This document shows, piece after piece, positions 19,519-63,532 of a stretch of DNA of 64,000 nt. Origin of the DNA: Bacillota bacterium (GTDB taxonomy: Bacteria > Bacillota > Clostridia > Acetivibrionales > JANLFN01); NCBI GenBank assembly GCA_030705825.1, contig JAUZPR010000001.1, positions 17,772 through 81,771 of the forward strand, read 5' to 3'. The position numbers and the translations under genes were made by a program. Below the pieces are notes generated by a model. It saw nothing but the letters and a program-made list of their open reading frames with translations. It was not told where the DNA came from and ran no database searches. How positions within the stretch are numbered: the stretch's first letter is position 1; each line of letters starts with the position of its first letter.

Positions 19519-19644
19519 ATTGGACTATAAGTGGGAAAGTTGAATTATTAACTTAATTTACAATATGATATAATATGGTGGTAACCAAACGGGCAAATAA
19601 GGCTGAAAATATGAGAACAAATTTGGACAATCAGGGGTGTTATA

Positions 19645-19998
19645 ATGAAATTACACGAGATTATTGAAATATTAAAAGCTGAGGTCCTGACCGGAGACAG
19701 AGAGTCACAAATGGAAATACTCTCGGCATGTGGTTCAGACCTTATGAGTGATGTAATGGCATATGTAAAAGATAATGTTCTTTTACTGACAGGTCTGATT
19801 AACCCACAAGTGATAAGGACGGCAGAAGTTATGGACATAAAGGTTGTAGCTTTTGTAAGAGGAAAAATTCCAGATTCAAATATTCTCGAACTGGCCAGAG
19901 AAAAAGATATAACGGTAATCAGAACGGAATATCCGATGTTTATAGCATGCGGAAAGCTTTACAAGGCAGGAATAACCGGAAGAGGTGCGGATTGTTGA
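19645..19998 (+). CDS. DRTGG domain protein
   Basis: 117 aa. ACGSDLMSDVM...LLLTGLINPQVIRTAEVMDIKVVAFVRGK is the DRTGG-type pattern. It is the first gene of the hydrogenase-associated module. Confidence 0.7.
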   Translation: MKLHEIIEILKAEVLTGDRESQMEILSACGSDLMSDVMAYVKDNVLLLTGLINPQVIRTAEVMDIKVVAFVRGKIPDSNILELAREKDITVIRTEYPMFIACGKLYKAGITGRGADC

Positions 19999-20423
19999 GC
20001 GAGAATCTGATTAATCTCTACTATGTTATAAATGCAAATGACTTTTCGGCTGCCGGTGAAGCATCGGGCAATGTAAAAAAGAAGCTCGTACAGCTGGGTA
20101 TAGATCCTGCAATAATAAAAAAAACTGCAATTTCAATGTATGAAGCCGAAATGAATGCATTTATTCACGCCAATGGCGGAGAGATAAATGTTGAGATAAG
20201 CAATAACAGAATAGTTATTGTAATATCAGACAAAGGTCCCGGAATAGCCGATCTGGATCTGGCTATGAAAGAAGGTTACTCCACAGCTTCCGACAAGGTG
20301 AGGGAAATGGGATTCGGCGCCGGAATGGGCCTTCCCAATATAAAAAGATACTCAGATGAACTGGATATACAAACAGAAGTAGGAAAAGGAACGACGGTAA
20401 GAATTATAGTTTATATAAATTAG
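19995..20423 (+). CDS. RsbW/SpoIIAB-like HATPase_c protein (anti-sigma-factor-type Ser/Thr kinase fold)
   Basis: TTG 19995 overlaps the upstream TGA (TTGA). N-box EAEMNAFIHAN, G1 DKGPGI, G2 GFGAGMGL. Confidence 0.7.
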   Translation: MSENLINLYYVINANDFSAAGEASGNVKKKLVQLGIDPAIIKKTAISMYEAEMNAFIHANGGEINVEISNNRIVIVISDKGPGIADLDLAMKEGYSTASDKVREMGFGAGMGLPNIKRYSDELDIQTEVGKGTTVRIIVYIN

Positions 20424-20777
20424 GTTCATAGTTCATAGTTCAGAGTTCGGAGTTAGGAGTTCAGAGTTCGGAGTTGAGAGTTCAGAGTTCGGGGTTTAGA
20501 GTTTAGAGTTCGGAGTTTAGAGTTCAGAGTCCGGGGTTCAGAGTCCAGAGTTCGAAGCTTTGTAAGTTAAAGTTCATGGTTTGGAGTTTGTAGATTTTAG
20601 AATAACTAAAGTTCGGTTTTATTGGTCGTGATAGTGTTAGCGTTCAGAGTTAGGGGTTGCAATTAAATGTTATGAGTTTAGTATTAATAGCTAAAAGAGT
20701 AATTTAAAAGCTTAAACTCTCAACTCCAAACTTTCAACCCTCAACCCTCAACCATCAACCATCAACTCCGAACTTGA
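20424..20777 (+). repeat. Inverted heptamer-array element A
   Basis: 19 phase-perfect heptamers GTTNNRA (units start at 20424 and then every 7 nt through 20550). Degenerate copies continue to ~20660. Nine heptamers AACNNNN (mostly AACYCTC) at 20715-20777 are reverse-complement types. The SD AGGAGG lies at 20779. Confidence 0.9.
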
Positions 20778-20790
20778 CAGGAGGTTTACA

Positions 20791-22125
20791 ATGGGGACAT
20801 ATTTTCACTCGGTAACTTTAAATGAAGAAAAATGCAGGGGCTGTACCAACTGTATCAAACGGTGCCCTACTGAAGCTATCCGGGTAAGAAAGAGTAAAGC
20901 GCGTATTATTAATGAAAGATGTATAGACTGCGGTGAATGCATCAGAATATGTCCGTATCATGCAAAAAATGCCATAACAGATAAACTTGAAACGATAAAT
21001 TCGTATAAATATAAAGTAGTTATACCTGCCCCATCCTTATATGGGCAGTTTAAGACCATGTACACCAGAAATCATATTCTTACGGCATTGAAGCAGCTCG
21101 GGTTCGATGAGGTTTTTGAAGTCGCAAGAGCTGCCGAGATTGTAAGTGACGCCACAAGAAAGCTGATAGGAAAGGGAGAATTGAAAAAGCCGGTTATTTC
21201 TTCTGCTTGCCCGGCTGTTGTAAGATTGATACAGGTTAGATACCCAAATCTTATTGATAATATTCTAAAGCTGGAATCTCCAATGGAGGTTGCGGCCAAA
21301 ATAGTTAAAAACAAGGTATTGCATGAGAAAAAATTGGATCCTGCCGATATAGGCGTATTCTTTCTGACACCGTGTGCCGCCAAGGCAACAAGTGTAAAAG
21401 CTCCTTACGAAATGGAAAAATCAAATGTAGATGGTGTAATATCTATTAAGGATATTTATTTAAAGCTTTTGTATTTGCTGGAACATGGAACAAGTACTGA
21501 ACAACTTGAAACAGCAGGTTTTGAAGGAATAAGATGGGCTAACCCGGGTGGTGAAAGCCTTGCACTTAACACCGAAAAATTTCTGGCTGTTGACGGAATT
21601 CACAACGTAATTACAATTCTTGAAGAAATAGAAAATGATAAGCTGGAGGATGTTGAATTTATAGAGGCACTTGCCTGCAGCGGAGGTTGCCTTGGTGGAC
21701 CGCTTACCGTAGAAAATGCATACGTTGCAAAAACCAAATTGAAAAAGCATATAGACCAGGCAAAACAAAAGGGTATTGAGGTAGGTCAGACAGATAAGCT
21801 TGACGATGATTTGGTCTGGACAGGCAACATTGAATACAAGCCTGTTATGAAGCTTGACAGTGATTTTGCAAAAGCAATGAAAATGCTTGAGGATCTGGAA
21901 TCAATAAATAATATTCTGCCGGGGTTGGACTGTGGCGCATGCGGCGCACCAAGCTGCAGAGCTCTTGCAGAAGATATAGTCAGGGGTATCGCAAACGAAA
22001 CCGATTGTATTTTCAAGCTCAGGGAAAAAGTCAGAGACCTTGCTTCCCAGATGATAGAGCTGGAAGCAAAAATGCCTCCGGTTCTGGACAGGGAAAATGA
22101 CGACAAACAGGAACAGGAGAGTTGA
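20791..22125 (+). CDS. [FeFe]-hydrogenase-like protein, putative sensory type (2x[4Fe-4S] ferredoxin + Fe_hyd_lg_C + C-terminal Fe-S domain)
   Basis: CRGCTNCIKRCP and CIDCGECIRICP. H-cluster-type motifs SSACP, TPCAAK and ALACSGGCLGGP. The C-terminal LPGLDCGACGAPSCRALAEDI is an RnfB/pfam04060-like Fe-S motif. Confidence 0.75.
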   Translation: MGTYFHSVTLNEEKCRGCTNCIKRCPTEAIRVRKSKARIINERCIDCGECIRICPYHAKNAITDKLETINSYKYKVVIPAPSLYGQFKTMYTRNHILTALKQLGFDEVFEVARAAEIVSDATRKLIGKGELKKPVISSACPAVVRLIQVRYPNLIDNILKLESPMEVAAKIVKNKVLHEKKLDPADIGVFFLTPCAAKATSVKAPYEMEKSNVDGVISIKDIYLKLLYLLEHGTSTEQLETAGFEGIRWANPGGESLALNTEKFLAVDGIHNVITILEEIENDKLEDVEFIEALACSGGCLGGPLTVENAYVAKTKLKKHIDQAKQKGIEVGQTDKLDDDLVWTGNIEYKPVMKLDSDFAKAMKMLEDLESINNILPGLDCGACGAPSCRALAEDIVRGIANETDCIFKLREKVRDLASQMIELEAKMPPVLDRENDDKQEQES

Positions 22126-22126
22126 A

Positions 22127-22501
22127 ATGACAGTAAGAGAGTTGACTGAAAAATTAAACTTGAAACCGGTTACTGCCAAAGCCGGACTGGACAAGCAAGT
22201 AACAGGGCTATATATATGTGACCTCTTAAGTTGGGTAATGTCCCATGCCGGCAGCAGCAATGCATGGATTACTGTACTCACAAATCTTAATACAGTTGCC
22301 GTTGCACTGCTGACCGAGATTTCCTGCATAATCATTCCTGAAGGTATAAAAGCAGAAGAGACAATGGTCAAAAGAGCTGAAACTGAAGACATCGCAGTAC
22401 TTGAAACCGATGACGATGCATACAGCATATGCTGCAAAGCGTACAAAGCGGGAATAGGTAAGGCAGTTGATAGTAGAAAATTGTTGACAGTTGATAGATG
22501 A
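22127..22501 (+). CDS. DRTGG domain protein (second copy)
   Basis: ATG 22127 lies after SD AGGAGAG. YICDLLSWVM...WITVLTNLNTVAVALLTEISCIIIPEG is paralogous to 19645-19998. The last ~7 codons lie inside heptamer array B. Confidence 0.7.
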   Translation: MTVRELTEKLNLKPVTAKAGLDKQVTGLYICDLLSWVMSHAGSSNAWITVLTNLNTVAVALLTEISCIIIPEGIKAEETMVKRAETEDIAVLETDDDAYSICCKAYKAGIGKAVDSRKLLTVDR

Positions 22502-22645
22502 CAATTGACAGTTAAAAACAGCTGAGAATACGTTTTTTTAAAATATTAGTTACATTTATTATATAATTATACGGATGGAGTAGAACCCCATCCCTACTTT
22601 TAAGTTGGTTCAACTGTACACTGTCCTCTGTCAACTGTCAACTAA
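22480..22645 (+). repeat. Inverted heptamer-array element B
   Basis: The left array is ATTGTTG ACAGTTG ATAGATG ACAATTG ACAGTTA AAAACAG (22480-22521). The right array is CAACTGT ACACTGT CCTCTGT CAACTGT CAACTAA (22611-22645), the exact complement family. A central GGATGG/CCATCC hairpin lies at ~22573-22593. Confidence 0.85.
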
Positions 22646-22657
22646 TTAGAGGTGTTT

Positions 22658-23374
22658 ATGAAATTTGCAACTGATCTTCATATCCATTCAGCATTATCAC
22701 CATGTGCGGATAAGGATATGACTCCAAATAACATAGTTAATATGGCAAGATTAAAAGCCTTGGATATAATCGCGGTAACCGATCATAATTCGGCTGAAAA
22801 CATTGAAGCAGTGCTCTCATGCTGCGAAGGCTCGGATGTTTTGACTATTCCGGGAATGGAGATAGAAACAAGGGAGGAAGTACATTTGATTTGTCTTTTC
22901 CCGGACCTTGAGTCGGTTCTTGCAATGCAGAAGAAAGTTTATGATGCACTTCCCGGTTTTAAAAATAATGAAAAAATATTCGGTGAGCAAATCATATTTA
23001 ACAGCAGTGATGAAATTACAGGCAGTGTGGATCAGCTGTTGCTTACAGCAACAAGACTCAGTCTTGAGGAAACAGTATTAAATGTATTAGAATTGGGTGG
23101 GGCAGTGATACCTGCTCATATCGACCGGAATTCCTACAGCATATTATCCAATCTTGGCGGAATTCCTGAAAATCTTAATATTAGGTGGCTGGAAGTCTCC
23201 AGGGGAGGCGATAGGGAAAAATTACTGAAGGAAGTTGATTATTTGTCAAAATATTTCCTATTAACATCTTCCGATGCACACTCTCTGGAAAATATTCTGG
23301 AACGTGAAAATTTTATTGAACTTAGTAATAAGACTGTTGAGAGTCTTTTATGTACCTTACGTAATGGATATTGA
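22658..23374 (+). CDS. PHP-domain (polymerase/histidinol-phosphatase-like) metal-dependent phosphoesterase
   Basis: DLHIHSALSPC, AVTDHNS, PAHIDR and TSSDAHS metal-ligand motifs. ATG 22658 after GAGG. Confidence 0.75.
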   Translation: MKFATDLHIHSALSPCADKDMTPNNIVNMARLKALDIIAVTDHNSAENIEAVLSCCEGSDVLTIPGMEIETREEVHLICLFPDLESVLAMQKKVYDALPGFKNNEKIFGEQIIFNSSDEITGSVDQLLLTATRLSLEETVLNVLELGGAVIPAHIDRNSYSILSNLGGIPENLNIRWLEVSRGGDREKLLKEVDYLSKYFLLTSSDAHSLENILERENFIELSNKTVESLLCTLRNGY

Positions 23375-23492
23375 AAATTTAAAAGGAAATGCTGAAATAG
23401 TAACATTAGTACTACCATTTCTTTGACAAAATCCCTTTTGTTAAAAAAATCAAATTCAAAACAATAAATGCTTTGCTTTTTTGTTATCTGTA

Positions 23493-23521
23493 TTGAATGT
23501 TTTACGAAAATTTGTTATAAT
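23493..23521 (+). promoter_or_regulatory. Promoter of the hydrogenase operon
   Basis: TTGAAT (23493-23498), a 17-nt spacer, then TGT-TATAAT (extended -10, 23513-23521). Confidence 0.65.
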
Positions 23522-23529
23522 GTTAACGA
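23512..23529 (+). promoter_or_regulatory. Rex (redox-sensing repressor) operator 1
   Basis: TTGTTATAATGTTAACGA compared with the clostridial Rex consensus TTGTTAAnnnnTTAACAA. It overlaps the -10. Confidence 0.65.
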
Positions 23530-23532
23530 AAT

Positions 23533-23550
23533 TTGTTAAATACTTAACAC
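23533..23550 (+). promoter_or_regulatory. Rex operator 2
   Basis: TTGTTAAATACTTAACAC matches TTGTTAAnnnnTTAACAA at 13 of 14 specified positions. Confidence 0.7.
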
Positions 23551-23602
23551 ATCTTACGGACAATCACAAAAAATTACATCTTTTATTGGGAGGTTGTATT
23601 CA

Positions 23603-24103
23603 ATGGGTGACAATATGTGCTGCTGCGGGTCTGCTGACGTAATGGACCAGAAGCTGCAGGAAATCATTGAGAGGTACAAGGATACCAATGGCGCACTAAT
23701 TCCGGTTTTGCACGAAGCTCAGGAGTTGTACGGATACCTGCCTATGGAAGTTCAGATGAAAATATCTGAAGGGCTTGGTATTACTCTTTCTGAGATATAT
23801 GGGGTCGTGACATTCTATACCCAGTTTTCATTGAAGCCAAAGGGAAAAAACAGAATATCGGTTTGTCTGGGTACAGCATGTTATGTTAAAGGCGCAAACC
23901 ATATCCTTGATAAACTTAAGGAGAAGCTGGGAATAGAAGTTGGTGACTGCACCGAGGATGGAAAATTCTCGCTTGATGCTTGCAGATGTATAGGCGCATG
24001 TGGCCTTGCACCTGTTATGATGATCAATGACGATGTTTATGGGAGACTGACTCCGGATGAAATAGAAGGTATAATCGAGAAGTATAAAAACAGGCAGGAC
24101 TAA
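23603..24103 (+). CDS. hydC: NADH-linked [FeFe]-hydrogenase, NuoE-like [2Fe-2S] subunit
   Basis: CLGTACYVKG...CRCIGACGLAPVMMIND is the thioredoxin-like 2Fe-2S pattern. ATG 23603 lies 9 nt after GGGAGG. Confidence 0.85.
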   Translation: MGDNMCCCGSADVMDQKLQEIIERYKDTNGALIPVLHEAQELYGYLPMEVQMKISEGLGITLSEIYGVVTFYTQFSLKPKGKNRISVCLGTACYVKGANHILDKLKEKLGIEVGDCTEDGKFSLDACRCIGACGLAPVMMINDDVYGRLTPDEIEGIIEKYKNRQD

Positions 24104-24675
24104 TGAGAGATCTGTCGTTGCATTTATTGGACATTTTACAGAATTCTATTTCAGCAAAAGCGGACAATGTTTCCATAGAATTGGCGGTAGATACCAGTAC
24201 TGACAAGCTTGCATTGAAAATAGCAGATAATGGTATAGGGATGAATGAAAAATTGTTAAAAAGTGTGACCGACCCATTTACCACTACCCGAACCAGCAGG
24301 AAGGTTGGGTTGGGTATATCCCTTCTTAAAGCATCGGCTGAAAGAGCTGGTGGAGAACTAATGATCCAATCGTCTGAGGGGAATGGTACCACAATAAGTG
24401 CAAACTTCAGTATTTCAAATATAGACAGGCTGCCACTGGGTGATTTGACTGAAACAATTTGCAGCATAATTGCTGCCTATATGGAAATTGAAATCGATTT
24501 AACCCTTATAAATGGCAGTAAAACATTCCAATTTAGTACAATTGAAATTAAAAAACAGATTAGCGGTATTCCAATAAATCATTATGATGTGCTTGAGTGG
24601 ATCAGGGAATTCATAAATGAAGGAATAACCACCATATTTGGAGGTGTTTTGAATGAAATCGTTAGCGGAACTTGA
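24103..24675 (+). CDS. Histidine-kinase-like ATPase (HATPase_c only) embedded in the hydrogenase operon
   Basis: LLDILQNSISA (N-box-like), DNGIGM (G1), GLGISL (G2). There is no HisKA or sensor domain. ATGA overlap with hydC. Confidence 0.7.
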   Translation: MRDLSLHLLDILQNSISAKADNVSIELAVDTSTDKLALKIADNGIGMNEKLLKSVTDPFTTTRTSRKVGLGISLLKASAERAGGELMIQSSEGNGTTISANFSISNIDRLPLGDLTETICSIIAAYMEIEIDLTLINGSKTFQFSTIEIKKQISGIPINHYDVLEWIREFINEGITTIFGGVLNEIVSGT

Positions 24676-25039
24676 AGAAATCAGAAAAAAGGCTCTGGAC
24701 AAAATAAATATAAGAAAAGAGAATAACGGAGTAAGAATAGTGGTAGGTATGGCCACCTGTGGAATAGCAGCAGGAGCAAGGCCTGTAATGAACACCATTG
24801 TTGAAGAACTGAAAAAAAGAAATATCAATGATGTAACAGTTACAATGACCGGATGTATCGGTGTATGCAGACTGGAACCCATAGTTGAGGTTCTGGATCC
24901 CGACGGAAGCAGAGTTACTTATGTCAATATGACTCCTGAAAAAGCTCAGCATATTGTTTCCGAGCATATAGTCAATGGTAGGATTTGTTTGGATTATACG
25001 ATTGGTGAAGTAGAAAAAAAGGAAAAAAGTAAAGCTTAA
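24653..25039 (+). CDS. Thioredoxin-like [2Fe-2S] ferredoxin subunit
   Basis: GMATCGIAAGA...TGCIGVCRLEP. 128 aa. It overlaps the upstream gene by 23 nt. Confidence 0.75.
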   Translation: MKSLAELEEIRKKALDKINIRKENNGVRIVVGMATCGIAAGARPVMNTIVEELKKRNINDVTVTMTGCIGVCRLEPIVEVLDPDGSRVTYVNMTPEKAQHIVSEHIVNGRICLDYTIGEVEKKEKSKA

Positions 25040-57712: not shown

Positions 57713-57789
57713 GTACTTGAAATTGATAACATTTTTTTGTATAATTGTAATAATATCTTTTTAAAGAATACTAAATAATATAAATACAA

Positions 57790-58046
57790 TGATGGAGAAG
57801 AGTATATTCGGGGATTTTAAGAGAGCCGGCGGTTGGTGCAAGCCGGTAAAAAACCGGATTGAACGCAGCTCCTGAGTATCTCCTTGAGAAATTTGAATTA
57901 CTTTCAAAGAATAGAGGAAGACGGTTAACTCCACGTTACAGGGGTACAATGTGAATGCATTGGTTAAAGTTGACGCTTAAAGCGTAATTAGGGTGGTACC
58001 GCGATTTACTCCTTCGTCCCTTGTACAGGGACCGAGGAGTTTTTAT
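57790..58046 (+). promoter_or_regulatory. T-box leader (tRNA-sensing transcription attenuator)
   Basis: Stem I has a GA/K-turn (TGATGG / CCTGAGTA), the specifier-loop 5' side AAGAGTA, an AGAGAG bulge and the distal loop GGTTGGTGCAA. The T-box sequence AATTAGGGTGGTACCGCG lies at 57986-58003. The terminator is CTCCTTCGTCCC / GGGACCGAGGAG plus TTTTT (58009-58045). Confidence 0.85.
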
Positions 58047-58143: not shown

Positions 58144-58623
58144 ATGGAAGAAATTCTGGAAATCCTGGAAAAGAACAATAAGCTTACCGAAGAGCAGATA
58201 GCGGTCATGCTGGGTAAAAGTGTACAGGAAGTAAAAGAAGCCATAAAAAAGTACGAAGATGAAAAAGTAATAGTAGGTTACAGTACGTTGATTAATTGGG
58301 ATAAGACCAACAAGGAAAAGGTTATAACACTTATAGAAGTCAAAGTGACTCCACAGAGAGGAGAGGGCTTTGATAAGGTGGCAGAGAGGATATACAGGTA
58401 TCCTGAAGTAAAGGCATGCTATCTGATGTCTGGTGGTTTTGATCTTACAGTCATAATCGAAGGGAAAACAATGAAAGAAGTAGCCCTGTTCGTTGCAGAA
58501 AAGCTTGCGCCATTGGAATCTGTTTTGAGTACGGCTACACATTTTGTTCTTAAAAAATATAAGGACGAGGGCATAACGTTTGAAGACAAGGAAAAGGATG
58601 ACAGGGAGGCTGTTGTCTTATGA
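58144..58623 (+). CDS. Lrp/AsnC family transcriptional regulator
   Basis: N-terminal wHTH (ILEILEKNNKLTEEQIAVMLGKSVQEV) plus an RAM/ACT-like C-domain. Confidence 0.85.
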   Translation: MEEILEILEKNNKLTEEQIAVMLGKSVQEVKEAIKKYEDEKVIVGYSTLINWDKTNKEKVITLIEVKVTPQRGEGFDKVAERIYRYPEVKACYLMSGGFDLTVIIEGKTMKEVALFVAEKLAPLESVLSTATHFVLKKYKDEGITFEDKEKDDREAVVL

Positions 58624-59789
58624 ACATAGGGGATATGATTCTTCCGCATGTTAAAAGTGTACCTCCTTCCGGTATAAGAAAATACTTTGATATGATCAAT
58701 GAAATGAAGGACGCAATTTCTCTTGGTATAGGCGAGCCTGACTTTGTTACTCCATGGAATATCAGAGAAGCTGGAATATATTCACTTGAGCAGGGGCATA
58801 CCCACTATTCGGCAAACGCAGGCTTTATTGAGCTGAGGGAAGAGATATCAAGGTACATGAAAAGAAAACATGGCCTTGAATATAAACCGAGAGAAGAAAT
58901 TGTTGTAACGGTTGGGGGAAGTGAGGCCATAGATGCAGCGCTCAGGGCGCTGGCCGGACCTGGTGATGAGGTGATCATACCGGAACCGAGTTTTGTTGCA
59001 TACAAGGGCTGCGCATCATTTTGCGGTGCAACACCGGTAGTAATAGACTTAAAAGCCGAGAACCAGTTCAGGTTGACTCCGGAGCAGCTTGAAAACGCAT
59101 TGACGCCAAAAACCAAGGTTGTCATAATACCTTTCCCAAACAACCCGACAGGTGCCATAATGCCAGGGGAGGATATGGCCCGGATTGCAGAAATACTTAA
59201 AGACAGGGATGTAATTGTATTATCGGATGAGCTGTACTCCGAACTTACGTATGAGGGCAGGCATATGTCGATAGCAAGCTATCCTGGAATGAAAGAAAAG
59301 ACTATTGTCATAAATGGTTTTTCAAAGGCTTATGCAATGACCGGCTGGAGGATAGGCTATGCCTGCGGACACAGAGATCTGATCAGCGTCATGACTAAAA
59401 TACATCAGTACGCAATAATGTGTTCACCTACAACCGCACAGCATGCTGCGATTGAAGCCCTCCGCAACAGCGATCATGATGTGGAAAGTATGAAAAGAGA
59501 ATATAACAGGCGCAGACGGGCTATGGTTGATGGGTTTAGAAGAATGGGGCTTGACTGCTTCGAACCTCTGGGCGCTTTTTATGTATTTCCGTGTATTAAA
59601 TCGACAGGTCTGACTTCGGATGAATTCTGTGAAAAGCTTCTTGCAGAGGAAAAAGTCCTGGTTGTACCGGGAAATGCATTTGGAGAATGCGGAGAAGGAT
59701 TTGTAAGAGCCACCTATGCAAACTCGATAGAGAATATATTTGAAGCAATTAAAAGGATAGAAAGGTTTGTTAATAACTGCAGAAAATAA
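58620..59789 (+). CDS. Class I/II PLP-dependent aminotransferase (AspC/AlaT-like)
   Basis: GEPDF, NPTG and the SFSKAYAMTGWRIGY PLP-lysine motif. ATGA overlap with the regulator gene. Confidence 0.85.
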   Translation: MNIGDMILPHVKSVPPSGIRKYFDMINEMKDAISLGIGEPDFVTPWNIREAGIYSLEQGHTHYSANAGFIELREEISRYMKRKHGLEYKPREEIVVTVGGSEAIDAALRALAGPGDEVIIPEPSFVAYKGCASFCGATPVVIDLKAENQFRLTPEQLENALTPKTKVVIIPFPNNPTGAIMPGEDMARIAEILKDRDVIVLSDELYSELTYEGRHMSIASYPGMKEKTIVINGFSKAYAMTGWRIGYACGHRDLISVMTKIHQYAIMCSPTTAQHAAIEALRNSDHDVESMKREYNRRRRAMVDGFRRMGLDCFEPLGAFYVFPCIKSTGLTSDEFCEKLLAEEKVLVVPGNAFGECGEGFVRATYANSIENIFEAIKRIERFVNNCRK

Positions 59790-60679: not shown

Positions 60680-61018
60680 CTAGATTGCGTTTTCTCCTCT
60701 TTCTCCGGTTCTTATCCTGACTACATCCTCGATTTCATAGACGAATATTTTGCCGTCTCCTACTTCACCTGTTTTTGCTTCGTCACTGATAAGCTTGATT
60801 ATTTCATCAACATGTTCGTCCTTGGCCACGATTTCAACTTTGATTTTAGGAAGTAAATTTAATGTAATTTCTGTACCTCTGTAATATTCTTTTCTGCCTT
60901 TCTGAAGGCCGCATCCCATAACCTGGCTTATGGTCAAGCCATGTATATTGAATTTGTTAAGGGTATCTTTTATATCTTCCAGTTTTCCGGGACGTATAAT
61001 TGCCTCGATTTTCTTCAC
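60680..61018 (-). CDS. glnB: Nitrogen regulatory protein P-II
   Basis: MKKIEAIIRPGKL...T-loop GRKEYYRGTE...GDGKIFV. GTG 61018 lies 7 nt after GAGGTGA. No amtB or glnA is adjacent. Confidence 0.9.
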   Translation of the reverse strand: MKKIEAIIRPGKLEDIKDTLNKFNIHGLTISQVMGCGLQKGRKEYYRGTEITLNLLPKIKVEIVAKDEHVDEIIKLISDEAKTGEVGDGKIFVYEIEDVVRIRTGERGENAI

Positions 61019-61040
61019 TGAAATCACCTCACTTGAATTT

Positions 61041-61069
61041 ATTATAATTTATATCCTGTAATTTGTTAA
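61041..61069 (-). promoter_or_regulatory. Proximal glnB promoter
   Basis: On the minus strand, TTAACA (61069-61064), a 17-nt spacer, then TATAAT (61046-61041). Confidence 0.55.
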
Positions 61070-61140
61070 CATATATTTACAGATTAATTAATTTGCTGCC
61101 CGTATTATTAGCTGTCAAAATAACTCCGACAGGGTTCAGT

Positions 61141-61247
61141 AAAATAAAAAGGCACTATATTAAGAGCATACTTCCCTCAATAAGCGCCTTCACTTATTTT
61201 CACCATAGTAATAAAAATATTATAACACCAAGACACTGAATTTACAA
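61141..61247 (-). promoter_or_regulatory. Distal promoter followed within ~30 nt by a terminator-like hairpin (candidate attenuator or ~60-80-nt sRNA)
   Basis: On the minus strand, TTGTAA (61247-61242), a 17-nt spacer, then TGT-TATAAT (61224-61219). AAGGCGC (61190-61184) pairs with GTGCCTT (61155-61149), followed by TTTTATTTT. Confidence 0.45.
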
Positions 61248-61551
61248 TAAGCAGTATTAATAGAGCTTGTAATACGACAGTACCCATGTTATTATTTAAA
61301 AAAATTTTTCTTTAATTTAATAGGCATTTTTGATATATTAACCTATGTGATAATGTTTTTAATTGAATATATATTGGAAATACGAAATTAAGCGGAACTA
61401 CAAAACAGCTGTTAGATAATTAAGCCGGGTAAGTATTTGTAAATATATATGAATATAATATAATACGTATTGAAGCAATTGTAACCTGCAGGTTGAACAA
61501 GAAATTTGTTCAAAGATTATTTCAGGTCGGAAACTATGGAAGGCGGTTGTA

Positions 61552-62136
61552 ATGGCTGGAGAAAAATATATCGTCGCTACACTGGACAATCCGTCACAAA
61601 TTAATATTCGTAATATTTTAAATCCGGGTGGTTACATATTTCTGGGTAATTGCTTTGATCCTGTTTCTCTTCTAAGGTTAATAAGAAGTTATAATCCGGA
61701 TTTTGTTGTAGTAGATTTGGGTATGCAGCCCAGAGAACTCAGAAAGACAATAGAAACAATAGATGATGAAATGCTGTGTGCCTGCATAGCATTAGGTGAT
61801 TACAGGGATATTGAAAACGAAAATCTTGTTCAAAGATGCAAGGTACTTACATTATGCCAAAAGCCTCTAAGCAGGGAAATATTTTTGAACACGGTTGAAT
61901 TGGCTAATATGTATTACAAAAGACTGAGCGAAACCGAACAGAAACTAAAGGAAATGACAGAAAATTATGAAACAAGAAAATCGGTAGAGCGTGCAAAGTG
62001 GATTCTCATTAAAAGGGATGGTATCAGCGAAGCAGAGGCTTATGAACGTATGAGGAAAAAGAGTATGGATTCAAGGCTTACAATGAAAGCAATTGCAGAG
62101 GCAATTATATTTACCCATGAGATAGAAGGAAAGTAA
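61552..62136 (+). CDS. ANTAR-domain RNA-binding antiterminator with an N-terminal pseudo-receiver
   Basis: The C-terminal RKSVERAKWILIKRDGISEAEAYERMRKKSMDSRLTMKAIAEAII is the ANTAR pattern. The N-terminal domain has VVVDLG but lacks the acidic DD pair. Confidence 0.8.
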   Translation: MAGEKYIVATLDNPSQINIRNILNPGGYIFLGNCFDPVSLLRLIRSYNPDFVVVDLGMQPRELRKTIETIDDEMLCACIALGDYRDIENENLVQRCKVLTLCQKPLSREIFLNTVELANMYYKRLSETEQKLKEMTENYETRKSVERAKWILIKRDGISEAEAYERMRKKSMDSRLTMKAIAEAIIFTHEIEGK

Positions 62137-62384
62137 GTAAATAGTTAGGAGTTAAGAGTTAAGAGTTAAGAGTTAAGAGTTGGGAGTAGTGAGTAAGGAG
62201 TTAGGGGTTTATGGTTCAGAGTTCGGAGTAAAATAGTTGGGAGTTGGGAATTTAGGAGTGATATCCTGTAGGGAACGGCGCCCCGCCATTCCGCTATAGT
62301 TAAAGGAATATTTCTAACTCTGAACTCCTAACCCCGAACTATGAACCCTGTAACTCCAAACTACGAACCACAAACCCCGAACTA
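62137..62384 (+). repeat. Inverted heptamer-array element C
   Basis: The element starts at the base after the stop codon. It has 14 in-phase heptamers (GTAAATA GTTAGGA GTTAAGA x4 GTTGGGA ... GTTCAGA GTTCGGA GTAAAAT, 62137-62234) plus 2 more after a +1 slip (62236-62249). The central GC hairpin is GGAACGGCG-ccc-CGCCATTCC (62272-62292). Ten complementary heptamers (TAACTCT GAACTCC TAACCCC ... CGAACTA) lie at 62315-62384. Confidence 0.9.
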
Positions 62385-62412
62385 ATCAATTATATTTTAG
62401 GAGATGATTTTT

Positions 62413-63532
62413 GTGATTGAACTTGATCAATTCAAGCTTGAAATTGACGAAATTAAAGGTGTTCTGGACGAAATGAGGGCTTCACTTTGACATCGCCAGG
62501 TTAAATGACGAAATAGCAGAACTGGAGATGAAATCAACAGAACCGGATTTTTGGAATGACATTGAAAATTCACAGAAAATACTTCAGAGGACCAAAAACC
62601 TTAAGACCAAGCTGGAACAGTTCCAGAAGATGGAGATGCAGTGCGACGATTTAAAAACCTTGAATGAGCTTGGTATTGAAGAAAATGATGATAGTGTAAT
62701 ACCTGAAATACAGGAAGGTTTGAAAAAGCTCAAAGAAAATTATGAAAAGCTTAAGCTTGAAACACTCCTGACAGGTCCATATGATAAAAACAATGCCATC
62801 ATAACAATGCATGCGGGTGCCGGTGGAACCGAAGCCCAGGATTGGGTACAGATGCTTCTGAGAATGTATACACGCTGGGGTGAAAGCAGGGGCTTTACCG
62901 TAAAAATTCTGGACTTCCTTGACGGTGAAGAGGCAGGAGTCAAGAGTGTGACAATTCACGTCATAGGCGACAATGCATACGGCTATCTAAGATCTGAGAA
63001 GGGAGTCCACAGGCTTGTCAGGATATCTCCTTTTGATGCATCAGGAAGAAGGCACACATCTTTTGCTTCGGTAGATGTTATGCCCGAATTGGATGATACG
63101 GTGGAAGTTGATATAGACCCTGACGACCTCCGTGTTGATACCTACCGTGCAAGTGGGGCTGGTGGACAGCACATTAACAAGACCGAATCCGCAATCAGAA
63201 TTACACATATTCCCACCGGCGTTGTCGTATCATGTCAGACTGAACGTTCACAGTTCCAAAACAGGGATACGGCTATGAAAATGTTGAAGGCCAAGCTTTT
63301 GGAATTAAAAGAGCGGGAACATAAAGAAAAGATAGAGGATTTAAAAGGAATACAAATGGAAATTGCATGGGGCAGCCAGATAAGATCTTATGTTTTTTGT
63401 CCCTATACACTTGTAAAAGACCACAGAAGCAACTATGAAGAAGGTAATGTCCAGTCTGTTATGGATGGGGAATTGGATGGCTTCATAAATTCCTACCTCT
63501 CAATGGGCGCTTTAAAGAAGGAAGAGCAATAA
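62413..63532 (+). CDS. prfB: Peptide chain release factor 2, programmed +1 frameshift (62413-62487 joined to 62489-63532)
   Basis: ORF0 is VIELDQFKLEIDEIKGVLDEMRASL-stop. The CTT TGA C shift site lies at 62485-62491 with an internal SD-like GAGGG at 62475-62479. The downstream frame gives DIARLNDEI...SPF...GGQHINKTESAIRITH (the GGQ motif). Confidence 0.9.
62475..62491 (+). promoter_or_regulatory. prfB autoregulatory +1 frameshift site
   Basis: GAGGG-cttca-CTT TGA C has the classical RF2 recoding architecture. Confidence 0.85.

Follow-up and report, generated by a model that had tools for sequence, protein, structure and literature searches.

What occupies the space between a gene for an ANTAR-domain response regulator and prfB, the gene for release factor 2 (RF2), in a member of the Bacillota? 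In the window (the whole stretch of 64,000 nucleotides of contig JAUZPR010000001.1 that was analysed), two facing arrays of heptamers take up the whole of this spacer (62137-62384, here element C), and two comparable structures, elements A and B, lie elsewhere in the same DNA. The locus raises the question of whether such a structure is a dedicated regulator of the downstream gene or a simple-sequence repeat (SSR) that grew where it is found.

Organization of the ANTAR-prfB spacer

The left array starts at the base after the TAA stop codon of the upstream gene, whose product is 100% identical to an NCBI entry annotated as 'ANTAR domain-containing protein [Bacillota bacterium]' and carries the Pfam domain PF03861. 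Fourteen units follow in phase from 62137, with a 1-nt phase slip at 62235 and then two copies of GTTGGGA. The right array, with units complementary to the left-arm consensus, has a 1-nt phase slip after the fifth of its ten units (Table 1). As inverted repeats, the arms show 74% complementarity over 50 nt, 86% over 28 nt and 94% over 18 nt. The GC skew of the left arm ranges from +0.85 to +1.0, and that of the right arm is about -0.6. In the left arm, Tandem Repeats Finder identified a period of 7 at 62143-62181 (5.6 copies, 96% matches) and periods of 14 and 21 as far as 62229; in the right arm it identified periods of 14 and 29. The heptamers that an earlier note on this DNA had listed are all present in the positions it gave, and independent tools agree on them. 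The distance from the right array to the Shine-Dalgarno sequence (SD) of prfB is 14 nt when counted to AGGAG, however, rather than the 13 nt given there.

Table 1. Genes and heptamer elements of the window, with their coordinates.
Feature	Position	Strand	Description
Element A	20424-20775	+	unit family as in element C; extends between the HATPase gene (TAG stop) and a HydS-like Fe-S gene (SD)
Element A, left arm	20424-20556	+	~19 GTTCAGA/GTTCGGA units
Element A, core		+	160 nt, degenerate
Element A, right arm	20714-20775	+	~9 CAACYnn units
Element B	22460-22643	+	unit family different from A and C; ends at the SD of the PHP gene
ANTAR-domain response regulator gene	61552-62136	+	194 aa; TAA stop (62134-62136) adjoins the left array
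Element C, left (5') arm	62137-62262	+	~16-18 GTTnnGA (= GAGTTnn) heptamers; G/T-rich, C-free
Element C, central core	62263-62314	+	unique, with GC-rich hairpin
Element C, right (3') arm	62315-62384	+	~10 nnAACnn units (TAACTCT, GAACTCC etc.); A/C-rich
Linker, prfB SD and start	62385-62415	+	SD AGGAG (62399-62403), GTG start (62413)
prfB (release factor 2)	62413-63532	+	Pfam PCRF and RF-1 on orthologues

The hairpin of the core, GGAACGGCG-ccc-CGCCATTCC (62272-62292), has 8 of 9 bp paired with one C.A mismatch, in agreement with the earlier description, and can be extended to TAGGGAACGGCG...CGCCATTCCGCTA. It is followed by GCTATAG on the + strand and by CTACAGG on the - strand. The only small open reading frames inside element C would encode 20 and 26 aa, and neither is supported. 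Downstream, prfB carries the programmed +1 frameshift site CTTTGAC (62485-62491). An 11-nt direct repeat, CAATTATATTT, occurs at 62102 and at 62387.

Relationship to elements A and B

A pattern of three consecutive GTTNNGA units, with at most one mismatch allowed, matches 20 times in the window (0.01 expected, from shuffled sequence). All of the matches are in elements A and C, which share a unit family, as the earlier note had stated. In both, GT at positions 1-2 of the left-arm units and AAC in the right-arm units are invariant, and positions 4-5 vary. Arrays in the window occur at period 7 only; periods of 5, 6, 8 and 9 give none. The left arm of element B is built of AGTTGAY/GTTGACA units and overlaps the last 14 codons of a DRTGG open reading frame; its core hairpin is GGATGGAG-tagaa-CCCCATCC, and its right arm consists of TCAACTG units.

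The three elements are non-random and share one architecture that runs from a stop codon to an SD, as had been proposed. It was also proposed that they are not copies of each other, and the differences in arms, unit order, length and core are in agreement with this. Short-word blastn against the window and ~250 comparison loci revealed no additional copy of any of the three cores. The arms of A and C pair across the two elements as well as they do within each element. Thus, their complementarity reflects a shared unit consensus, not element-specific co-evolution, and offers no compensatory evidence for upkeep of the particular hairpin in element C. The statement that the elements are oriented with transcription carries no information, because in the reverse complement, too, GTT-type units precede AAC-type units.

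Predicted RNA folding and transcription signals

The predicted RNA fold of element C has a free energy of -84.8 kcal/mol, compared with -61.6 +/- 4.75 kcal/mol for shuffled sequences (z = -4.9). The core hairpin is paired in the minimum-free-energy folds of either strand. The long hairpin persists when 62080-62470 is folded, with the prfB SD immediately outside its base and predicted to be 75% unpaired. There are nine G-U pairs in the fold of the + strand and eight in that of the - strand, and these equal counts give no sign of RNA-level selection on the sense strand. The excess of G-U pairs in element A derives from its longer G/U-rich arm.

No terminator-like sites were identified in a scan of 61300-62600. 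Element C lacks the combination of GC-rich stem-loop and U-tract that makes an intrinsic (Rho-independent) terminator, as neither the GC hairpin nor the long stem has a T-run behind it on either strand. A search for + strand promoters found none inside element C and none between it and prfB. Scanning of the window with Rfam 15 at gathering scores gave a single match, a T-box at 57780-58024, and a permissive scan of 62000-62550 returned matches with E>2 alone, to eukaryotic families. A megablast search of a plasmid collection with the locus gave no match. The RNA targets of ANTAR proteins are composed of two adjacent short hairpins with 6-nt loops that have conserved A1 and G4. By inspection, this pattern is absent from element C, where there is a single central hairpin with a 3-nt CCC loop and no tandem partner.

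The same sites in related species

The adjacency of the ANTAR gene and prfB is kept in five of six related species, and their spacers are short and contain a prfB promoter and/or a terminator. Those of L121 and L252 are 60-95 nt long with an extended -10 promoter, and those of L124 and L125 include a terminator hairpin. Repeat arrays 3' of the ANTAR gene were found in none of the six, of which the nearest are 72-76% identical in the ANTAR protein. Just the two ends of the relatives' spacer are retained in the window. The ANTAR C-terminus EGK* is common to the relatives, the block ..TTAGGAGATGAT.. around the prfB SD is conserved in them, and the edges of element C are continuous with ancestral spacer sequence. 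The spacer is hypervariable, essentially the finding that the earlier note had named as speaking against its interpretation, and it is without arrays in all six relatives.

From the comparison of these sequences, the growth of element C appears to have erased the prfB promoter that is present in the relatives' spacers. If so, expression of the essential RF2 gene would hinge on read-through, over 250 nt of structured RNA, from the gene of a nitrogen-linked ANTAR regulator, and element C would illustrate concretely how simple-sequence repeats can rewire an operon.

At site A, the orthologous spacer measures 15-33 nt in L127 and L129; L131 has 164 nt there, in which no repeats occur. L127 and L131 have 15-16 nt at site B. 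The 326 nt of L129 at that site hold a different heptamer pair, and this genome carries another heptamer pair 3' of the PHP gene.

Comparison with known repeats and intergenic elements

Intergenic G-rich heptameric SSRs have been described in Xanthomonas (GGGAATC) and Anabaena/Nostoc (GGGGAYT), where ~90% are intergenic (Rehm 2015, PMC4692102). Their units have a conserved core and variable positions, and two convergent arrays able to form a stem-loop are often present. The G-rich strand is on the coding strand, with a mean distance of 28 nt to the 5' ORF versus 160 nt to the 3' ORF, and repeat length and sequence are not conserved among close species. Most of the repeats are transcribed, and a regulatory role was sought, but no function was found (Rehm 2015, PMC4692102). 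Element C also consists of tandem heptamers, well above the two to four copies at least that are expected of this class (5.6 copies; ~16 + 10 units), and has a conserved unit core with variable positions 4-5. It is intergenic, with the G-rich coding strand directly 3' of an ORF, its G-rich 5' and C-rich 3' arrays converge and could form a stem-loop, and its length and sequence are unconserved among related genomes. It differs in its AT-richer unit (GAGTTnn, without G-tracts), for which G-quadruplex formation is not expected, in its host, an uncultured member of the Bacillota represented by a metagenome-assembled genome, and in that the arrays here fill the entire stop-to-SD spacer in operon-like gene pairs. 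This class of intergenic heptameric SSRs was reportedly also treated by Mrazek in 2007.

The cyanobacterial short tandemly repeated repetitive (STRR) heptamers of Calothrix/Anabaena were reportedly described by Mazel et al. in 1990. STRRs are dispersed tandem heptanucleotide arrays in non-coding DNA, often within operons. Element C is similar in being made of tandem heptamers in non-coding DNA, whereas the classical STRR units (CCCCAGT, TTGGTCA, CAACAGT) are different and were described mainly as single arrays and in one phylum. Reports of heptamer repeats go back to 1990, and many bacteria have more of them than expected, but they are not known to have a function.

No function was found for the TAACTGA direct repeats that occur in marine Beggiatoaceae, Cyanobacteria and Bacteroidetes (MacGregor 2015, PMC4679880). 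In this case too, the corresponding spacers between the same genes are shorter and free of repeats in close relatives, strains differ by indels in 7-nt steps, and binding of a protein has been proposed (MacGregor 2015, PMC4679880). The AACT core and the A/C-rich mRNA strand immediately 5' of the start codon are features shared with the right arms described here. However, the TAACTGA repeats are almost always direct (one inverted set among 170), occur in 2-6 copies and often replace a recognisable SD, whereas in element C a canonical SD follows the array.

The REP, BIME and REPIN sequences of Enterobacteria and Pseudomonas are intergenic palindromes, often found within operons near stop codons; as co-transcribed hairpins, REP elements block exonucleases and can affect upstream translation termination (PMC12306157, PMC3116915). 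They are the best analogue of element C in terms of how it may work. In structure they differ, as REPs are fixed imperfect palindromes of ~35 nt in hundreds of near-identical copies mobilised by RAYT, whereas elements A, B and C have no fixed sequence, consist of tandem heptamers and have no repeated copies. Sets of many near-identical palindromic units of ~25-40 nt were not found within the window. [quoted passage not shown] The broad lineage (Clostridia) and the position of a stem-loop between cistrons are shared with element C. The SRPS stem-loops are short unique hairpins with mapped processing sites and no reported repeat structure, whereas element C is a long predicted stem-loop built of heptamers.

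We conclude that element C is of the same kind as the cyanobacterial STRRs, the Xanthomonas GGGAATC repeats and the Beggiatoaceae TAACTGA repeats. The possibility, raised earlier, that the family is a known dispersed repeat is essentially what we find, in the form of intergenic convergent heptameric SSRs (Rehm 2015, PMC4692102; MacGregor 2015, PMC4679880). The case extends the convergent-pair heptamer class to the Bacillota.

Origin and possible role of element C

Element C is not a conserved dedicated regulator of prfB. It is probably a lineage-specific convergent pair of heptanucleotide SSRs that grew by slippage, shares a transcript with prfB, is looped out in the form of a hairpin and possibly acts in a REP-like manner. 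We infer that it grew in place within a short ancestral stop-to-SD spacer, through replication slippage in 7-, 14- and 21-nt steps, and that an inverted copying event or pairing-driven homogenisation may have given both arms one unit family. Transcription of prfB would most likely proceed from the ANTAR-gene promoter through element C, because no terminator and no internal promoter were found. Pairing of the arms in the predicted transcript gives an imperfect hairpin of ~100 bp that loops out ~235 nt, and at its base only ~40 nt or less would separate the ANTAR stop codon from the free SD of prfB. Such a fold could make the insertion tolerable inside an operon. The structure is probably REP-/SRPS-like, acting as an exonuclease barrier and possibly as an RNase III substrate, and such a barrier would modulate the relative stability of both cistrons. 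Co-transcription, folding in the cell and the effect on mRNA stability are predictions only.

Alternatively, the hairpin may be a selected cis-regulatory RNA that is kept because it sets the ANTAR:RF2 expression ratio, via processing by RNase III/RNase Y, SRPS-like differential stability, or translational coupling in which a ribosome terminating at the ANTAR stop opens the hairpin base beside the prfB SD. The strong predicted hairpin with the SD just beyond its base is consistent with this, as are the documented SRPS stem-loops of related cellulolytic Clostridia (PMC4423207) and the placement of all three elements exactly from stop codon to SD in same-strand gene pairs. That the architecture recurs with strict polarity in many phyla and in phages (see below) also points to constraint beyond mutation. 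We nevertheless regard a selected regulator as rather unlikely, given that the six relatives lack the arrays and instead rely on a prfB promoter of their own and/or a terminator, that neither element-specific co-variation of the arms nor a G-U strand bias is seen, and that Rehm et al. sought a regulatory role for analogous repeats and found none (PMC4692102). That element C terminates transcription or insulates the ANTAR gene from prfB is hardly credible. It contains a GC-rich hairpin, and the corresponding spacers of L124 and L125 do include a terminator hairpin, but on both strands T-runs are lacking after the GC hairpin and after the long stem, the scan found no terminator, and no promoter lies downstream of element C to restart the essential prfB. 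The proposal of the earlier note that the elements form a functional class rather than chance occurrences holds in so far as the intergenic class is real and recurrent; with neither a terminator nor an internal promoter found, there is no indication of a dedicated function, for example as terminator or insulator.

The ribbon-helix-helix omega protein of plasmid pSM19035 binds 7-bp heptad arrays on DNA. The heptamers of element C might be iterated sites for a sequence-specific protein, on RNA or DNA, with S1, a cold-shock protein or a CsrA-like protein as candidate RNA binders, as proposed for the TAACTGA repeats. A binding platform would fit the invariant GT (left) and AAC (right) with variable positions 4-5, a pattern similar to that in Rehm 2015, and strict convergent polarity is expected of directional binding sites; it is also the reading put forward by MacGregor (2015, PMC4679880). 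However, no candidate protein was identified, site occupancy is unconserved, two unit families occur in the window (GAGTTnn, GTTGACA) and others in a close relative (AATAGGT, GAAGTTA), and the conservation of unit positions may stem from higher-order duplications of 14/21 nt rather than from independent constraint. We therefore consider this improbable. Inverted arms around a unique core, the occupation of spacers that are tiny in relatives, and the 11-nt direct repeat would fit a miniature mobile element (MITE- or REPIN-like) with heptamer-built terminal inverted repeats, inserted between stop codon and SD. This origin is very improbable. Elements A, B and C differ in length, unit order and core, no second copy of a core is present in the data, the edges of element C run on into ancestral spacer sequence, and the ORFs of 18.5-24.5 kb and 58-64 kb include no evident transposase or RAYT gene. 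Terminal inverted repeats with a target-site duplication in multiple similar copies, as in MITEs, were not found. The 11-nt repeat was rejected as a target-site duplication, because it would enclose the conserved last eight ANTAR codons. Insertion of the GC hairpin as a small mobile module (SDR-like) is unsupported, as there are no dispersed copies of the core.

Distribution and polarity of convergent heptamer arrays

Among the matches listed, the convergent heptamer architecture is found in bacteria of more than 10 phyla as well as on contigs of phages. Many genomes of Nostoc, Calothrix and Rivularia have GTTAGGA-type arrays, which belong to the same unit family as element C. The arrays follow a strict polarity, in which the G-rich arm comes first and adjoins the 5' neighbouring ORF, in agreement with the published accounts (Rehm 2015, PMC4692102; MacGregor 2015, PMC4679880): among the loci listed, the G-rich arm is 5' in 58 cases versus 2, with the complementary partner downstream in 36 genome loci and upstream in 1, and downstream in 22 and upstream in 1 in the phage contigs. 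For other heptamers in the same loci, the left arm has G>C in 11 of 13. We conclude that repeats of this class are under a real constraint to place the G-rich arm before the C-rich one. The strict polarity and the placement beside stop codons exceed what neutral slippage alone would give, and some selective or mechanistic factor is missing. A polarity that is near-absolute in the matches listed, over more than 10 phyla and phage contigs, is a sharp and testable constraint for any explanation of heptamer repeats.

Several candidate causes were rejected. Cyanobacteria, to our knowledge, lack Rho, and they follow the same rule, so avoidance of Rho is not the general cause. Avoidance of U-tracts or terminators does not account for the polarity, which follows G versus C and not T-richness. 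Mimicry of the SD by the units is not general either, as the common units GTTTTGA and GTTATGA are unlike an SD. It is conceivable, although we think it distinctly unlikely, that convergent heptamer arrays are a pan-bacterial and phage module at the RNA or DNA level, with a specific mechanism, G-rich first and anchored at stop and start codons, of which element C would be one working copy controlling RF2 supply. In such a module, a co-transcriptional fold may 'splice out' the spacer in three dimensions, keep translational coupling and never expose the C-rich arm; or the arrays may be a platform for a putative conserved heptad-binding protein.

Paired and unpaired arrays do not differ in length, so that one prediction of a model in which pairing permits growth falls away. 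Unpaired arrays are nearer to the 5' ORF in 35 cases versus 12, and the rule that the G-rich strand lies on the coding strand directly 3' of the 5' ORF holds over a set of at least 120 genome loci.

Structure of element C

Element C consists of two facing heptamer arrays in the spacer between an ANTAR-domain regulator gene and prfB (release factor 2). It is real, and the observation in the earlier note was correct, as direct reading and a 7-nt register layout place every unit where it had been listed. The left array runs GTAAATA, GTTAGGA, GTTAAGA (four copies), GTTGGGA, GTAGTGA, GTAAGGA, GTTAGGG, GTTTATG, GTTCAGA, GTTCGGA and GTAAAAT, followed after a 1-nt slip by two copies of GTTGGGA. Tandem Repeats Finder reported period 7 (5.6 copies, 96% matches) along with periods 14 and 21 in this arm, and periods 14 and 29 in the right arm. 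The two arms are inverted repeats, 74% complementary over as much as 50 nt and 94% over 18 nt. The repeat structure is significant: three-unit GTTNNGA with at most one mismatch has 20 matches in the window (0.01 expected), all inside elements A and C. A period scan found arrays at period 7 only, and none at periods 5, 6, 8 or 9. GC skew is +1.0 in the left arm (whose first 60 nt lack C) and -0.6 in the right arm. Folded as RNA, the + strand of element C reaches -84.8 kcal/mol (shuffles -61.6 +/- 4.75, z = -4.9) and the - strand -83.8 kcal/mol (z = -6.6). The layout is common to elements A, B and C. The description of the elements as oriented with transcription is without content, because the reverse complement likewise has its G/T-rich units ahead of its A/C-rich ones.

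Element C and the final 8 ANTAR codons lie between the copies of an exact 11-nt direct repeat, CAATTATATTT. A target-site duplication is ruled out because these codons are conserved, and the repeat is probably due to chance or microhomology.

Positions of element C, its neighbours and other features in the window
Feature	Position	Strand	Remark
Element A	20424-20775
Element B	~22460-22643
T-box leader	57780-58024	+	Rfam RF00230, 125 bits
ANTAR-domain response regulator	61552-62136	+	ORF 5' of element C
Direct repeat CAATTATATTT	62102-62112 and 62387-62397
Element C, left array	from 62137	+	14 in-phase units (7-nt register layout)
Element C, core hairpin	62272-62292	+	GGAACGGCG-ccc-CGCCATTCC, 8/9 bp, in unique core
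Element C, right array	62315-62384	+	ten A/C-rich units, one phase slip past the fifth
prfB Shine-Dalgarno (SD)	62399-62403
prfB	GTG start 62413	+	3' of element C
prfB programmed frameshift site	62485-62491	+	CTTTGAC

Gene context and predicted transcription

The ANTAR ORF product is 100% identical to an NCBI protein of a metagenome-assembled genome labelled "Bacillota bacterium". Its nearest homologues are 72-76% identical, and the named relatives Pseudobacteroides and Anaerobacterium 65-67%. A scan of 61300-62600 yielded no terminator-like site, and no + strand promoter-like site within element C or 3' of it. Two candidates lie farther 5', TTGTAA-16-TATAAT (61437-61464) as promoter of the ANTAR gene and a weak match within that gene (62083-62111). 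Thus, prfB is most likely transcribed through element C. The predicted fold of 62080-62470 keeps the long hairpin, with the prfB SD directly outside its base and 75% unpaired. Such a hairpin would loop out ~235 nt and bring the stop codon and the SD to within ~40 nt of each other.

The region 60680-61551 has only a 525-nt non-coding gap between the P-II and ANTAR genes. As amt lies there in 5/5 syntenic relatives, it has been lost or moved here. The gap is a possible site for the P-II gene's ANTAR target leader.

Orthologous sites in relatives

The synteny of amt, P-II, the ANTAR gene and prfB is conserved in relatives. We compared the spacer 3' of the ANTAR gene in six related species and found a period-7 array in 0/6. 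The spacers are ~95 nt and AT-rich with an extended -10 TGTTATAAT (L121), ~60 nt containing GCGTTATAAT (L252), and ~100 nt with TTGACA...GATAAT (L253). L124 has a terminator hairpin and then TTGACA, L125 has a terminator hairpin, and in L254 an integrase gene breaks synteny. In the alignment, the window retains just the stop-codon end (..AAGTAAATA..) and the SD end (..TTAGGAGATGAT..) of the spacer, and element C replaces the promoter-bearing middle. The local consequence would be loss of the prfB promoter and coupling of prfB to the ANTAR gene via 250 nt of structure.

Elements A and B lie in a gene cluster at 19548-24700 that is conserved (DRTGG, HATPase, HydS-like [FeFe]-hydrogenase-domain Fe-S protein, DRTGG, PHP, 2Fe-2S thioredoxin-like, HATPase) and tightly packed in relatives, with 15-33-nt or overlapping junctions. 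The spacer at site A is 33 nt in L127, 15 nt in L129 and 164 nt without repeats in L131. The spacer at site B is 16 nt in L127, 15 nt in L131 and 326 nt in L129, where it carries a different convergent pair (AATAGGT/ATAGGCT units facing CCAATAGCCCATAGCCTATTGCC). The next L129 spacer has another (GAAGTTA/GAGGTTA facing CCAACCTCTCACCTCCAACTTCTCAC). These pairs lie at 2700-2985 and 3755-3855 of L129, whose HydS-like protein is 79% identical. The sister contig L130 stops inside the first of these arrays, which suggests that assemblies break at heptamer repeats. In the window, array B (22460-22501) ran over the DRTGG-domain gene's stop codon (L127 has ATATAG, the window ATAGG), adding 14 repeat-encoded codons (GKAVDSRKLLTVDR). 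This comparison of orthologous spacers at sites A, B and C points to a convergent heptamer class that is typical of the lineage, with fast turnover of site occupancy and unit sequence. The elements occupy formerly compact stop-SD-start junctions.

A known class of heptamer arrays

Rehm et al. (2015; PMC4692102) described two heptamer repeats, GGGAATC of Xanthomonas and GGGGAYT of Anabaena, in which some unit positions are conserved and others vary; 89-93% are intergenic, with 70-75 convergent inverted pairs per genome and mean distances of 28 nt to the 5' ORF vs 160 nt to the 3' ORF. They also reported extensive length and sequence variation among close species, and transcription of most repeats; a regulatory role was sought and none was found (PMC4692102). 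In Beggiatoaceae, Cyanobacteria and Bacteroidetes, TAACTGA repeats occur directly 5' of start codons, with repeat-free spacers in close relatives, strain differences of 7-nt indels, and S1, Csp or CsrA proposed as binders (MacGregor 2015; PMC4679880). The Geobacter metallireducens genome paper shows tandem heptanucleotide sites (consensus MTYCTGA), with the alignment drawn looping between both DNA strands (PMC2700814). Element C has every defining trait of the published convergent class, differing from that of Rehm et al. in its Bacillota host and AT-rich GAGTTnn unit. The earlier note's elements do form a real class; however, that class was already published, and element C is not conserved at its locus. 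Element C is thus an addition, in Bacillota, to a described class that has been a puzzle since 1990.

Scanning 185,579 species genomes for (GTTNNGA)x4 gave at least 120 loci; the matches listed include Cyanobacteria, Bacteroidota, Planctomycetota, Deltaproteobacteria, Chloroflexota, Acidobacteriota, Verrucomicrobiota, Nitrospirota, Clostridia and others. Viral contigs, scanned likewise, gave at least 120 loci; GTTNNGA arrays are thus common in contigs of phages and giant viruses (e.g., L196, 4534-4764), one GVMAG contig having 8 consecutive pattern matches. Among the matches listed, the complementary partner (within 350 nt) lies downstream in 36 cases and upstream in 1 (104 arrays with enough flank), and in 22 and 1 in viral contigs. 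Pairs of other heptamers in these loci have G>C in 11/13 left arms and C>G in 12/13 right arms, again among the matches listed. Unpaired arrays there, read G-rich, are nearer the 5' ORF in 35 cases vs 12 for the 3' ORF (p = 0.001; medians 19 and 72 nt) and most commonly start directly past a same-strand stop codon; paired and unpaired arrays listed do not differ in length. This near-absolute polarity across phyla and phages offers a sharp experimental handle.

The Clostridia loci L040 and L111 also have GAGTTnn arms. L111 (rumen Clostridia, 320-520) is a composite, with five GAGTTMA units followed directly by ~20 heptamers of GCAACTT/GCCACTT type, a different, partly complementary unit that keeps the AACT core. 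Of the units of the 16 exact GTTNNGA types among the genome matches listed (L001-L120), 74% carry a stop codon on the G-rich strand (GTTAGGA, GTTTTGA, GTTATGA, GTTGAGA and others), vs 50% expected for uniform NN, a raw figure that takes no account of AT content or of the non-independence of units in one array.

Proposed origin and alternatives

We propose that the arrays grew in place through slippage, with the 14- and 21-nt higher-order repeats as a possible record of multi-unit duplication steps, and that an inverted copying step, or homogenisation, would have given both arms one unit family. Element C would be co-transcribed with prfB and then fold, and the insertion may be tolerated because the fold keeps the stop codon and SD close together. 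By analogy with REP elements and SRPS stem-loops, the stem may block exonucleases and offer a possible site for RNase III (PMC12306157, PMC4423207, PMC8219983).

This model does not account for the order of the arms, with the G-rich one always 5', or for the anchoring of that arm at the 5' ORF. As general causes of the polarity we rejected Rho avoidance, since cyanobacteria, which are not known to have Rho, follow the rule; terminator or U-tract avoidance, since polarity tracks G vs C and not T content; and SD mimicry, since many common units are not SD-like. Speculatively, fold-back priming by a self-pairing G/T-rich nascent strand would account for the arm order, and would leave anchoring at ORF ends unaccounted for.

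That element C is a hairpin selected for regulation seems unlikely to us, if the least so of the rivals. The sense strand is not favoured by its G-U pairs (9 vs 8). Arm pairing scores (left x right) are 31.5 for A x C, 27.5 for A x A, 18 for C x A and 19.5 for C x C; the arms of A and C pair equally well between elements as inside one, and those of B only with each other. Because cross-element pairing matches within-element pairing, the complementarity is a product of the unit family that the elements share and not of base-by-base co-evolution within a single hairpin. We give a platform for a binding protein, such as those suggested for TAACTGA repeats, about half that credence. A MITE- or REPIN-like mobile element is quite improbable; a second copy of the A, B or C core was found neither in the window nor in ~250 fetched loci. 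Least probable of these is a terminator or insulator, and consensus matches to terminators are missing from the scanned region. We also consider an assembly artefact unlikely: the arrays are degenerate and are embedded in a contig of 93.7 kb, and independent assemblies, many in number, contain them too.

A T-box upstream of a putative regulator

The T-box leader lies 5' of two ORFs, 58144-58623 (putative Lrp/AsnC-like, from the look of its sequence) and 58620-59789 (putative aminotransferase, by eye), and such a pair would be unusual T-box cargo.
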